Source of the DNA: Candidatus Eiseniibacteriota bacterium
Lineage (GTDB): Bacteria; Eisenbacteria; RBG-16-71-46
Direction: 5' to 3'
Assembly (NCBI GenBank): GCA_041498315.1
Contig: JBGQIE010000003.1
Coordinates: forward strand, 1 to 53,568
Length of the DNA stretch: 53,568 bases
Numbering within the stretch: the stretch's first letter is position 1; every line of letters begins with the position of its first letter. Below, piece after piece: positions 43,001-46,488 of this stretch. The position numbers and the translations under genes were made by a program. The notes below the pieces were generated by a model. The model ran no database searches and was not told the origin of the DNA. It saw only the letters and a list, made by a program, of their open reading frames with translations.

Positions 43001-43951
43001 ATGGAACGTGCGGCGGTGGTCTACTCGGCGCGCTACGCGTGCGACATCGGCCCGCACGTCTTTCCGGTGGCCAAGTTCCGGCTGGTGCGCGACGCGCTGG
43101 TCGAGGCCGGAACGGTCGCCGCGGCCGACATCCTCGAGCCTGCGCCGGCCACCCGCGAGGAGCTGCTCCTCGTCCATACCCCGGAGTACCTCGACGACCT
43201 CGACCAGCTGCGCTGGACCCCGCGCACCCTGTACTCCGAGCTGCCGCTCGAGCACGACATCGTGCGCGCCTACATCCTGGCCGCGGGCGGGACGACGCTC
43301 GCCGCGCGCGCGGCGCTCGAGCGCGGCGCCGCGGTCAATCTCGGCGGGGGCTTCCATCACGCGGGTCCGGGCCGCGCCGAGGGTTTCTGCTACATCAACG
43401 ATCTCGCGGTCGCGATCCGGGTGCTCCAGCGCGAAGGCCGCCTGCGGCGCGCCGCGGTCGTGGACCTCGACGTCCACCAGGGCAACGGGACCGCGCAGGT
43501 CTTCGAGGGTGATCCGACGGTGTTCACGCTCTCGCTGCACCAGGAGAACAACTACCCGGCGCCCAAGGCGCGCAGCAGCCTCGACGTCGGGCTGGCCGAC
43601 GGCACCGCGGACGCGGCGTATGGCGCGCGGCTCCACGACGCGCTCGCGAGCGTGTGGGAGTTCGAGCCCGGGCTCGTGCTCTACCAGGCGGGCGCCGATC
43701 CGTTCCGGGACGATCAGCTCGGCGGCCTGGCGCTGAGCCTCGCCGGCCTCGAGGCGCGCGACCGCGCGGTGCTCGAGGGCTGCGCCGAGCGCGGGATTCC
43801 GGTCGCCGCCACCCTCGGGGGCGGCTACGCGCGCCGCCTCGAGGACACGCTGCGCATTCACGAGCAGACCTGCCGCCTGGTACTCGCGCGCGCGGGGCTG
43901 GGCCCGGCGGCGCCCGCCGGCGGCCACGACCGCGCCGGGGGCCGGACGTGA
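43001..43951 (+). CDS. Histone deacetylase family protein
   Basis: GGGFHHA, GFCYIND, DLDVHQGNGT, YQAGADP, GGGY. Confidence 0.93.
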   Translation: MERAAVVYSARYACDIGPHVFPVAKFRLVRDALVEAGTVAAADILEPAPATREELLLVHTPEYLDDLDQLRWTPRTLYSELPLEHDIVRAYILAAGGTTLAARAALERGAAVNLGGGFHHAGPGRAEGFCYINDLAVAIRVLQREGRLRRAAVVDLDVHQGNGTAQVFEGDPTVFTLSLHQENNYPAPKARSSLDVGLADGTADAAYGARLHDALASVWEFEPGLVLYQAGADPFRDDQLGGLALSLAGLEARDRAVLEGCAERGIPVAATLGGGYARRLEDTLRIHEQTCRLVLARAGLGPAAPAGGHDRAGGRT

Positions 43952-44904
43952 TCCGCGCCTGGATCGCCGACGCCGAGGGCGTGCGCGAGATCGAGCCCGG
44001 CGAGGCGCTCGAGGCCGCCCAGGAGGGGACGGCGAACGCCTGGGTCGATTTCGAATCGGAGAGCGAGCCCTCGATCCGCGCCGTGCTCGGCCTGCTCGAC
44101 ATCCACCCGCTCGTCATCGACGACATCGCGGTGGATCTCAACCGGCCCAAGGTGGACGATTTCGGGACCTACCTCTACGTCGCGGTCCATTCGGCGCGCT
44201 GGGACGACGACCGGCCGGTGATGCGCGAGATCGACATGGTGCTCGGCGGGCGCTACCTCATCACCTCGCACGACGAGACGACGCGCTCGGTCGCCGCCGC
44301 CCGCCAGGTCATCGTGCGCCGCCCCTCGCTGCTCCAGCGCAATCCCGCCATCCTGCTCCACTACATCCTCGACGACATGGTCGACAACTACCTGCCGATC
44401 GTGGACCACATCTCGGAGGAGCTCGACGAGCTCGAGGAGCGCGTGCTGGGCGACAGCGACCCGGCGGTGGTGCAGCAGAAGATCCTGCACCTCAAGCGCG
44501 GTCTGTCGGCGCTGCGCCGCATCGTCGGGCCGCAGCGCGACATCCTGCTCGCGCTGACGCGCGACGAGTTCAGCGTCGTGCCCGCCGAGCTGCGCCCCTA
44601 CCTCCGTGACGTGTACGACCGCCTCGCCCGGGTCACCGACCTGTTCGACTCGTTCCGCGACGAGACCGGCTCGCTGCTCGACCTGCACGTTTCGACCGTC
44701 TCGAACCGGCTCAACGTCATCATCAAGCGGCTCACCGTGCTGGCGACGGTCGGTCTGCCCCTCACGATCATCACCAGCTACTACGGCATGAACTTCGCCC
44801 TGCCTGAATATCGCTGGCCCCATCCCGAGCTGGTGGTCATCGGGCTCATGGCGGCGAGCGCGCTCGTGACGTGGGCGGTGCTCAAGTGGACGCGATGGAT
44901 GTAG
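43948..44904 (+). CDS. corA: CorA-family Mg/Co transporter
   Basis: RPKVDDF, YLRDVYD, YYGMNF (GMN motif), two C-terminal TM. Confidence 0.9.
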   Translation: MIRAWIADAEGVREIEPGEALEAAQEGTANAWVDFESESEPSIRAVLGLLDIHPLVIDDIAVDLNRPKVDDFGTYLYVAVHSARWDDDRPVMREIDMVLGGRYLITSHDETTRSVAAARQVIVRRPSLLQRNPAILLHYILDDMVDNYLPIVDHISEELDELEERVLGDSDPAVVQQKILHLKRGLSALRRIVGPQRDILLALTRDEFSVVPAELRPYLRDVYDRLARVTDLFDSFRDETGSLLDLHVSTVSNRLNVIIKRLTVLATVGLPLTIITSYYGMNFALPEYRWPHPELVVIGLMAASALVTWAVLKWTRWM

Positions 44905-44929
44905 GCTGCGCGCGGCGCGGGGAGGGAGT

Positions 44930-45186
44930 CCCGCGCACACATCCAACCTGAAGATGAAGGAGAGAGGGGACCCGCCTTACTCGGCGCCTTAGAGGGAAGT
45001 CGTCTTGGGCGGACAACTCCAGCGCCTTGCAGCTCCCTTCCCGCGAGGCCCGGTTCCGATCCTCCCGGCTCACCTCGCTCGTGTCGCCGGTTGCAATCAG
45101 AAGTCAGGCAGAATACGCGCAGCGAACGCATTCTCGAGTCGGATAGGAAAGCTCCCTGCCAAGGAGTTCTTTCTGCCCAGCTGTAC
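44930..45186 (-). ncRNA. Candidate structured non-coding RNA (family not identified)
   Basis: Own promoter upstream, no credible downstream ORF, several stems with G.U pairs only on the minus strand; ends approximate. Confidence 0.6.
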
Positions 45187-45191
45187 CCGGA

Positions 45192-45220
45192 AGTTTGTGT
45201 CCGCTCCCGTCGCCTGTCAA
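45192..45220 (-). promoter_or_regulatory. Sigma70-type promoter of candidate ncRNA
   Basis: TTGACA-N17-CAAACT. Confidence 0.65.
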
Positions 45221-45264
45221 GGCTCGAAGTGACACCCGCACGCCCGCGGCCATTCGCGCGGGCG

Positions 45265-46488
45265 CTAGCGCTTCTTCGCCGTCTTCTTGTCCGATGACGG
45301 GGCCGGCTTCGGAGGCGGTGGCGGCTTGGGAGCATCCCCCGTCACCTCGAGCGAGACGTCGTCGAAGTACACCCGGCCCGGGGCCGGCGACTGATACGAG
45401 CACCACGCCCAGACCTCGTAGGTGTCGGGCGGCGCGTCGCCCTCGACGCTGACGAGGGTCCAGTCGTTGGTCCCCGAGTAGAGCTTCGGCACCGGGTGGC
45501 GGGCGCCATCGATCGTCTTGAAGAACAAAGCCACGTTCGCGGTGCCCCGCAGGCTGTCGGTCTTGAGCCATCCCGACAATCGCAGATGCTTGCCCGCGAG
45601 CCCGCGATTGATGACCGCCTGGCAGGCGCCGGTGGCGATCTGGTTGAATCCCGCGCCCGCGTCCTCGAAGTGGATGCACGCCTTGCCGGAATGCGAGAGC
45701 GTCGTGTCGCGCTCGACGCGCTGCCCCTCGTAGGGTGGCATCGAGTACTCCCACAACGTGCCGTCGCCCTCGAATCCCGGATCGGCGAGCAGGTTGGCGC
45801 CCACCGCCACCGGGGCGGGCGGCTGGGCGGACTCGAGGGTCAGGGACGCGTCGTCGAACAGCACCTGGCCGGTGCCGGTGAGGCCGGCGCTCAGCCGCAG
45901 CCAGGTGGTCGTCGGAGGAATGAACAGGCGCACCTCGCGCCGCACCCAGTCGGTCTCGGTATCCAAGAAGTACTTGTAGGTCCATCCCATCTCGAGCATC
46001 GGGTCGTCCACCGTGTTGATGCGGAGCGAGTCGGCCGCCCGCAGCCGCGACACCCCCCAGATCTTCGCCATCTTGCTGAGCGAGTCGCGGTAGATCGCGG
46101 CGCGGATGTACGCGCGGCCCTGGAGCCCGTTGCTGCGCGTCCACATCGAGAACACGACATCCTTGCCCCACCAGCTCCGATCGACGATCAACCCCTGGTT
46201 CCAGTTGTAGGCCATGAAGAACAGCGTGCTGAGGTTCGCGATGCTGACCGCGTAGTTGCCGCTGTGGACCAGGAACGTGTCGCGTCCGAAGAACACCGAC
46301 ATGAGCCCCGAGGCCGCCGTGTCCCAGGCCGCCGGCATCCACGGGTGGCCGGGGAGCGGCTGCTCGAATCCGGGATTGTCGAGCAGATTGGGTGAGGGCT
46401 TCGGAGCCGCGGCCGCGGTGCCGGGCCCGGCGGCGAGCAGCAGCAAGCTCGAGAGCGCCAGCAGGCGCGCGAATCGGGACAGCGACAT
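45265..46488 (-). CDS. Exported protein with two carbohydrate-binding-like (CBM4/9-type) domains
   Basis: Signal peptide; repeated NLLDNPGFE / NLLADPGFE starts and VLFDDASL / VYFDDVSL ends. Confidence 0.75.
   Translation of the reverse strand: MSLSRFARLLALSSLLLLAAGPGTAAAAPKPSPNLLDNPGFEQPLPGHPWMPAAWDTAASGLMSVFFGRDTFLVHSGNYAVSIANLSTLFFMAYNWNQGLIVDRSWWGKDVVFSMWTRSNGLQGRAYIRAAIYRDSLSKMAKIWGVSRLRAADSLRINTVDDPMLEMGWTYKYFLDTETDWVRREVRLFIPPTTTWLRLSAGLTGTGQVLFDDASLTLESAQPPAPVAVGANLLADPGFEGDGTLWEYSMPPYEGQRVERDTTLSHSGKACIHFEDAGAGFNQIATGACQAVINRGLAGKHLRLSGWLKTDSLRGTANVALFFKTIDGARHPVPKLYSGTNDWTLVSVEGDAPPDTYEVWAWCSYQSPAPGRVYFDDVSLEVTGDAPKPPPPPKPAPSSDKKTAKKR

Follow-up and report, generated by a model that had tools for sequence, protein, structure and literature searches.

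The minus strand of the window (the whole stretch of DNA analysed, 53,568 nt) carries what comparison of homologues identifies as a non-coding gene of its own, encoding a structured RNA of ~230 nt. By the same comparison the RNA is a new class with no catalogued family match; newness concerns the RNA class, and function is inferred. The original prediction of a new class with its own sigma70 promoter thus held up on four counts: conservation, covariation, promoter conservation and no Rfam match. The features of the locus are collected in Table 1.

Table 1. Features of the RNA locus and its neighbours (positions in the window).
Feature	Position	Strand	Remarks
407-aa lineage-specific gene	45265..46488	-	upstream of RNA on same strand; no Pfam family
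-35 box TTGACA	45215..45220	-	TTGAC in 70/70 homologues
-10 box CAAACT	45192..45197	-	17-nt spacer; family consensus cA(c/g)AcT
RNA gene, ~230 nt	44957..45186	-	covariance model R1 match 44957-45187
P1 5' strand ACAGCU	45179..45184	-	GCAGCY in most; pairs with AGCUGC 45029-45034
GGGC linker	45175..45178	-	predicted pseudoknot partner of GCCC 45007-45010
P2 hairpin	45147..45173	-	GAAAG/CUUUC, CUCC/GGAG; loop UUGGCAG 45156-45162, GGCA invariant
P3 and P4 5' strands	45135..45143	-	partners 45035-45037 and 45040-45043; join two three-way junctions
P5 hairpin, 9 bp	45110..45134	-	loop UCGCUGC 45119-45125, GCUGC invariant
P6 rod, ~21 bp with internal loops	45048..45109	-	sequence variable, length near-constant
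P6 tip loop GAGCGAG	45074-45080	-	GCGA core 45075-45078, kept in 70/70
SD-like GAGGUGA	45070-45076	-	overlaps P6 tip
P7	44983..45026	-	lower and upper stems separated by a one-sided C-rich bulge; 7-nt loop containing GCCC
P8 terminal hairpin	44957..44978	-	C-rich loop UCCCC, CCUC-type 3' strand
corA Mg2+ transporter gene	43948..44904	+	PF01544, E 2.8e-63; neighbour, outside RNA

The RNA lies in a 360-bp gap (44905-45264) between corA and a gene for a 407-aa protein. As first described, these neighbours are convergent and the gap is mildly less GC-rich (61-66%) than the flanking coding DNA (mostly 64-80%). Among 80 neighbourhood loci, some of them duplicates, corA was convergent with the RNA at 50, four of the six sister-family sequences among them. 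A deacetylase-domain gene lay downstream at 58 loci, convergent wherever seen, like corA, and ten loci showed neither gene. The 407-aa gene stood upstream at 71 loci and was absent upstream in the sister family, so that the upstream neighbour is not the same in the two families. The 407-aa protein has a signal-peptide-like start and two similar domains; its look-alike clusters consist of hypothetical proteins, and in one of them 27% of the members have CBM_4_9.

The predicted minus-strand promoter, TTGACA-N17-CAAACT, was found to be conserved. TTGAC was present 34-39 nt 5' of the RNA in 70/70 distinct homologues, against 0.006 expected per sequence, and an xAxxxT box followed after 16-18 nt in all 70 (best of three spacers taken), with A2 and T6 of the -10 box kept throughout. 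The spacer was 17 nt long in 42 homologues, 18 nt in 26 and 16 nt in two. Note that a consensus promoter scanner did not list this promoter, CAAACT matching only 3/6 positions. In the comparison of homologues, promoter conservation is far beyond chance. Because the promoter is conserved in all 70, it fixes the strand of the RNA and places the predicted start near 45186. This predicted 5' end was placed from the -10 box, and the predicted 3' end, near 44957, from the last conserved hairpin.

No conserved start codon or reading frame was found among the 70 homologues, whose lengths spread over all three phases. Only 15/70 have a start codon after the SD-like motif, at scattered positions, and the earlier statement that the promoter serves no credible protein was borne out. 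The RNA does not appear to be a leader, since corA and the deacetylase gene, wherever they were seen downstream, converge on it; a riboswitch or T-box leader was likewise rejected. Only the divergent copy in genome G079 was noted with a same-strand gene behind it. There, a gene resembling a peptide transporter is inserted between the RNA and corA, and this copy may be on its way to decay or to becoming a leader.

Metatranscriptome contigs from 4/4 runs (3 studies) cover 44953-45173, i.e. the body of the RNA, and one contig of 172 nt is identical to it with zero differences. These sequences were retrieved with this very stretch and as contigs only, and DNA carry-over in the RNA libraries is possible. 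The flanking genes obtained only short, unlike pieces and no matching contigs, a result that cannot rank expression. No U-rich terminator was found at the RNA 3' end, and a GC-rich hairpin (44915-44960) lies immediately beyond it. A longer 3' end or read-through into this hairpin region is possible, because the RNA contig of a related strain extends 68 nt past 44953 into similar sequence. The missing terminator and the extended contig, together with the frequent convergent corA, would suit a cis-acting sensor (e.g. of Mg2+) that controls antisense read-through into corA. However, the RNA is unchanged where corA is missing and the deacetylase or another gene adjoins, and neither a conserved terminator/antiterminator alternative pairing nor a riboswitch match was found, leaving this reading only a slim chance.

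The folding energy of the RNA was no better than that of shuffled sequences, with z = -0.23 for 44930-45220 and z = +0.19 for the trimmed RNA; the plus strand gave z = +1.68. Because the energy is unremarkable, single-sequence stems alone are insufficient to make the case. Covariation supports a fold of two nested three-way junctions, P1-P2-P3 and P4-P5-P6, followed by the hairpins P7 and P8. In a sequence-only alignment of 22 homologues, two-sided change was seen in 29/42 predicted pairs. A blind covariation test (an in-house approximation of R-scape) on a sequence-only alignment of 70 ranked model pairs in the top 9 of 23,220 column pairs, four of them exceeding the maximum of every one of 25 tree-based nulls. 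The helices were thus recovered blind in homologues from related genomes. A model-fitted alignment, which leans to the model, had 90% of cells paired, compared with 39-52% in slid controls, and two-sided change in 45/66 pairs; the lower stem of P7, misaligned in this alignment, was examined by folding instead. P1 was paired in 99% of cells with two-sided change at 4/6 pairs, and P5, which took the top rank in the blind test, changed on both sides at 9/9 pairs. The P6 rod folds with z = -4.31, and its length ranges over 39-48 nt (41-44 in 58/70).

Three hairpins originally drawn from the single sequence correspond to P2, P5 and upper P7 and are supported by the homologues. The P5 stem, GAAUGCG/CGUAUUC, is paired in 83-99% of homologues per position. 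CUCCUU/AGGGAG (84-100% paired) stands except for its inner U-G/U-A, which probably form part of a 7-nt loop (C-C in 9/70), and in GGAGUUGUC/GACGACUUC the inner six pairs are retained (67-99%) but the outer three are not (3-30%). In contrast, the nested rod drawn alongside them was lost on comparison: GGAACC/GGGUCC pairs in 24-57% and GGGAAG/CUUCCC in 1-44% at four of six positions, and CAACC/GGUUG and GAGGUGA/UCAUCUU have arms beyond the conserved span. This rod, the basis for the 6S/Ms1 suggestion, is an artefact of folding one sequence alone. The supposed switch pairing GGCAGAA/UUCUGCC falls to 44% and 6% at the two final positions.

The column profile contains five invariant unpaired words, GGGC, GGCA, GCUGC, GCGA and GCCC, for which tertiary contacts can be proposed. 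GGGC after P1 is predicted to pair with the P7 loop as a pseudoknot. The GGGC/GCCC pairing is nearly invariant (98% of cells paired), and in a sole compensating genome (L173) both sides are altered together (GGCCAC/GUGUC). GGCA in the P2 loop and GCUGC in the P5 loop are able to kiss by three or four pairs; GGGC and the P2 loop are 18 nt apart in 64/70 homologues, and the P2 and P5 loops 35-38 nt apart in 66/70. Judging from invariance and spacing geometry, a kissing contact between these loops is probable. Loop-loop packing of neighbouring hairpins is known from the T-box, the M-box and the SRP Alu domain. Alternatively, the partner of the P5 loop could be the rod tip (GCU/AGC).

The rod tip may make a third contact. 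GCGA is present in all 70 homologues and occurs as a plain tetraloop in the G079 copy, which points to a GNRA-like loop that would dock on the minor-groove side of an invariant helix. The G079 copy keeps the promoter, GGGC/GCCC, GGCA and GCUGC, and its rod tip is reduced to the canonical tetraloop CACGG-GCGA-CCGUG. Docking of such loops prefers CC:GG/CU:AG steps. Invariant steps of this kind are found in P2 (CC:GG in 69/70, CU:AG in 62/70), and candidate docking sites are P2 CUCC/GGAG or the end of P1. GYRA/helix docking uses two Watson-Crick pairs (PMC7913685, PMC2275092). Two loci have insertions at the tip with GCGA kept, ~45 nt long 3' of the tip in L125 and 5 nt long within the tip loop in L180. 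A further candidate pairing, between GAGG of the rod tip and CCUC of the P7 bulge, was rejected; it is feasible in most homologues, and the 23 without it show no compensating complement (p = 0.62).

Nested junctions, a pseudoknot, a kissing loop and GNRA-like docking are all packing devices of large ribozymes (PMC2275092), and the RNA might in principle be a ribozyme or catalyse RNA processing, its invariant core being small. We consider this very unlikely: few invariant unpaired nucleotides remain after the tertiary pairs are assigned, likeness to Rfam ribozymes is absent at E<=10, RNase P RNA is separate, and no mobile-element or processing-gene context was seen at the loci.

The rod tip could also act as a decoy for ribosomes. 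In this case the tip would open and offer GAGCGAGGUGA to the 16S anti-SD with no start codon behind it, and 30S subunits would be parked or titrated. When the 16S rRNA of a relative was divided into 1,509 windows of 12 nt, the 11-mer GAGCGAGGUGA paired best with the anti-SD (-12.7 kcal/mol); this pairing reaches -11 or better in 55/70 homologues, and the median homologue score was equalled by 0/3,000 random genomic 14-mers. In cases of a disrupted tip stem, the 3' GUGA base was retained 24 times versus 8; however, a similar 3' bias exists in the P7 upper stem (16 versus 6). Moreover, the invariant C is a mismatch, and GUG is changed with stem compensation in several homologues. Because the match was noticed after the fact (an equally good site occurs in 4% of random 230-nt windows), needs melting of the tip stem (by itself the tip loop reaches just -3.2) and has disappeared from G079 (no SD-like motif, GCGA tetraloop kept), we retain the 30S decoy as a rival explanation, and a quite unlikely one.

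CCCC was present in 69/70 RNA tails, and in 66/69 it was unpaired in a hairpin below -5 kcal/mol. The 3' strand of P8 reads CCUC(C/U) in 62/64 tails of family f1; in the sister family this hairpin is reduced. The P7 bulge is CCUCUAA here and NCCCUC in most homologues. C-rich seeds of this kind are used by RsaE/RoxS and RNAIII, regulators that pair with mRNA ribosome-binding sites. A base-pairing regulator with the P8 loop and the P7 bulge as seeds would be consistent with a CCCC loop unpaired in 69/70 homologues and a C-rich 6-nt bulge in most. Nevertheless, four fifths of the RNA is conserved tertiary core, which such sRNAs do not need, and CCUC is missing from the P7 bulge in 23/66 folds, making this role decidedly improbable.

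The RNA is confined to a small group of genomes. BLAST of the gap gave a match in 21/24 same-family genomes, at one site each. A covariance model built from 22 same-family sequences matched 55/59 family genomes and 5/6 genomes of the sister family, but 0/3 genomes of the order's third family and 0/82 other genomes of the phylum (0/85 together). The RNA was single copy in 60/61 positive genomes. The exception, G134 (contigs C301 and C136; L131 and L133), has two near-identical copies in an assembly that is 4% contaminated, and these probably stem from two strains binned together. A second model, in which the sister family had more weight, gave true matches of at least 117 bits and noise of at most 22 bits in 40 genomes. 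A pattern scan of all GTDB species returned 61 loci, 43 titled Candidatus Eisenbacteria and five with other names, and the covariance model confirmed 60/61; a 28-nt match (L022, genome G038) was confirmed by neither model and discarded. Because four of the five oddly named loci have the same neighbours, we assign the RNA to the Eisenbacteria lineage. Records L079, L083, L098 and L113, titled as other phyla, contain the RNA with Eisenbacteria-type neighbours and are likely mislabelled bins.

Wider searches added no new subtype. A promoter-anchored pattern gave six matches in 50 genomes beyond three family controls, the level of the reversed control. In f2 genomes, whose deacetylase locus differs, the RNA was found in 0/3. 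Viral pattern scans (39 and 13 loci) produced no full match; locus L202 has three look-alike loops but was rejected, lacking P1, the 3' domain and the promoter. In metagenomes, 36/80 scanned loci (at least 117 were found) were full matches, representing both known subtypes, and nothing more distant was present among the loci scanned.

Four apparent absences were traced to their loci. In G079 the divergent copy is present at L358:2789-3009 and had been missed by the search filters, and in G159 the copy is cut by the contig end. In G018 (L356, contig C154, after 6181) the sequence behind the 407-aa gene switches abruptly from high to low GC; the low-GC DNA reads like an rny gene, and the contig looks chimeric. 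The RNA site of G154 (L357:1-375) holds other DNA, transposase-fragment-like, and the RNA may have been disrupted or displaced. Because the filters overlooked the G079 copy, absence elsewhere means 'not found'. As judged by these sequence searches, the RNA has a narrow range, two families of uncultured Eisenbacteria.

Rfam 15 gave 0 matches at gathering scores over the whole window, and the predicted novelty stands. At E<=10, the gap alone returned three junk matches of 13-14 bits, with no ribozyme and no ykoK or other riboswitch. A published description of the RNA was not found in a literature search that excluded supplements, where large motif lists sit. Identity with tmRNA, RNase P RNA or SRP RNA had been denied at the outset, and each was indeed found at a separate locus. 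ARAGORN places tmRNA on contig C41, and the new RNA locus has neither a tmRNA model match nor a conserved frame; the genuine RNase P RNA (RF00010) is on C183 (279 bits) and the genuine small SRP RNA (RF01854/RF00169) on C174. A tRNA-Sec is also listed by ARAGORN in the source genome (G000). A lone 16-nt stretch that duplicates the P2 hairpin and lies upstream of an ORF resembling a sigma factor (G000:C97 near 1787, minus strand, L324) was dismissed as chance. It is unmatched by the profile and not conserved in 40 relatives, and hairpins of this type are not clearly enriched (12/901, versus 6-16 of 1,257-2,339 for six control loops).

With 6S and Ms1 the RNA shares size class, independent sigma70 transcription and single copy number, features that would also suit a second RNA-polymerase-binding RNA (6S/Ms1/CoRP-like) beside canonical 6S. 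Published work adds that Ms1 homologues can be without detectable sequence likeness (PMC9130861) and that further polymerase-bound RNAs exist (PMC11077062). However, the covarying fold has no end-to-end rod or central bubble. The 6S model RF00013 does not match at the RNA locus and matches another locus in 37/41 genomes, and a separate canonical 6S was found in 23/24 same-family relatives; in G012, 6S lies at 3.53 Mb and the new RNA at 1.15 Mb. In the source genome (82% complete), none of 6S and its usual neighbours ygfA and rny was found, and two 6S-like matches each were seen in G027, G039 and G040. The Ms1 model RF02566 was silent at the locus and above cut-off in 0/5 genomes, its best matches reaching 13-16 bits at other loci. 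Both 6S and Ms1 are rods with a central bubble, whereas the Eisenbacteria RNA is a multibranched knot with unpaired ends. Ms1 is described as having a central bubble, short 5' and 3' hairpins and HAD hydrolase synteny (PMC9130861); the neighbours here are corA, the deacetylase gene and an unknown gene, and neither the structure nor the synteny of Ms1 is present. Thus, the divergent 6S/Ms1-like RNA of the original prediction did not survive, and a polymerase-binding role is very improbable.

GGCA in the P2 loop reads like the glycine specifier of a T-box. In contrast to T-box and SRP RNAs, the Eisenbacteria RNA has no T-box bulge (the column profile contains no conserved unpaired UGGN), no downstream regulated gene and no SRP S domain. 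A reading of the loop UUGGCAG as a partner of tRNA-Gly(GCC) was also set aside; it is complementary to the anticodon loop, but a chance fit is common and there is no CCA-binding element.

Closer parallels are offered by raiA and OLE RNAs. raiA RNA is ~200 nt, abundant, single-locus, trans-acting and KhpA/B-bound (PMC12968392). The new RNA resembles it in size (~200-250 nt), single locus, own promoter and multi-junction fold with two pseudoknots, which are predicted in the new RNA, raiA being trans-acting and of unknown function (PMC12968392, PMC10861870). Nevertheless, there is no sequence match between the two, and the raiA model RF03072 was above cut-off in 0/5 genomes and had no match at the RNA locus. 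P1 of raiA joins the 5' and 3' ends, and raiA has a UUAGACGUAA linker and a PK linker between P5 and P6; P1 of the Eisenbacteria RNA closes only the 5' 160 nt, its 3' strand lying ~70 nt before the 3' end with two hairpins after it. In OLE RNA, bS21 binds a mimic of the SD:anti-SD duplex, and the RNA is linked to Mg2+ stress (PMC12054373). The likeness to OLE consists of a proposed role as an ornate trans-acting RNP RNA, the loosely duplex-like P8 and corA as a neighbour. However, OLE is ~600 nt long and tied to oapA, and the Eisenbacteria RNA has no Rfam match and no obligatory corA link. Its range of two families is narrow, unlike that of OLE or of raiA, which occurs in Bacillota/Actinomycetota.

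By analogy with raiA and OLE, we propose, at roughly even confidence, that the ~230-nt RNA is a compact three-dimensional unit serving as a trans-acting RNP scaffold, with the C-rich bulge and the terminal hairpin as its binding face. As covariation shows, P1 closes the 5' domain of two nested three-way junctions, with the P7 and P8 hairpins following. GGGC would knot onto the P7 loop, GGCA of the P2 loop would kiss UGC of the P5 loop, and the GCGA tip of the fixed-length rod would dock on an invariant helix from the minor-groove side. These internal contacts would consume the invariant purine-rich loops and leave the C-rich P7 bulge and P8 facing outward, to be bound by a conserved protein. 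The likeliest partner would be a translation-related RNA-binding protein of the bS21, bS1 or KH type.

A more specific version of the scaffold, which we think unlikely, is an ornate housekeeping RNA that engages translation. Its rigid knotted core would hold a terminal hairpin mimicking SD:anti-SD and a rod tip complementary to the anti-SD, and the RNA would bind bS21/30S platform and regulate initiation or ribosome storage in slow-growing soil/sediment bacteria. The match of GAGCGAGGUGA to the anti-SD is the one signal in the sequence that hints at a link with translation. Note that the SD:anti-SD likeness of P8 is loose, with GGAGG in 6/64 tails and CCUCC in 35/64.

Few bacterial RNAs are both large and intricate in fold, and the ones whose role is understood (RNase P, tmRNA, SRP, 6S) carry out core tasks. 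The RNA described here would be an extra conserved RNA machine beside the complete standard set of housekeeping RNAs, in an uncultured lineage without one described so far. It is single copy and keeps a strong promoter across two families. Its size of 230 nt and its many natural variants make it directly accessible to probing, cryo-EM and pull-down.
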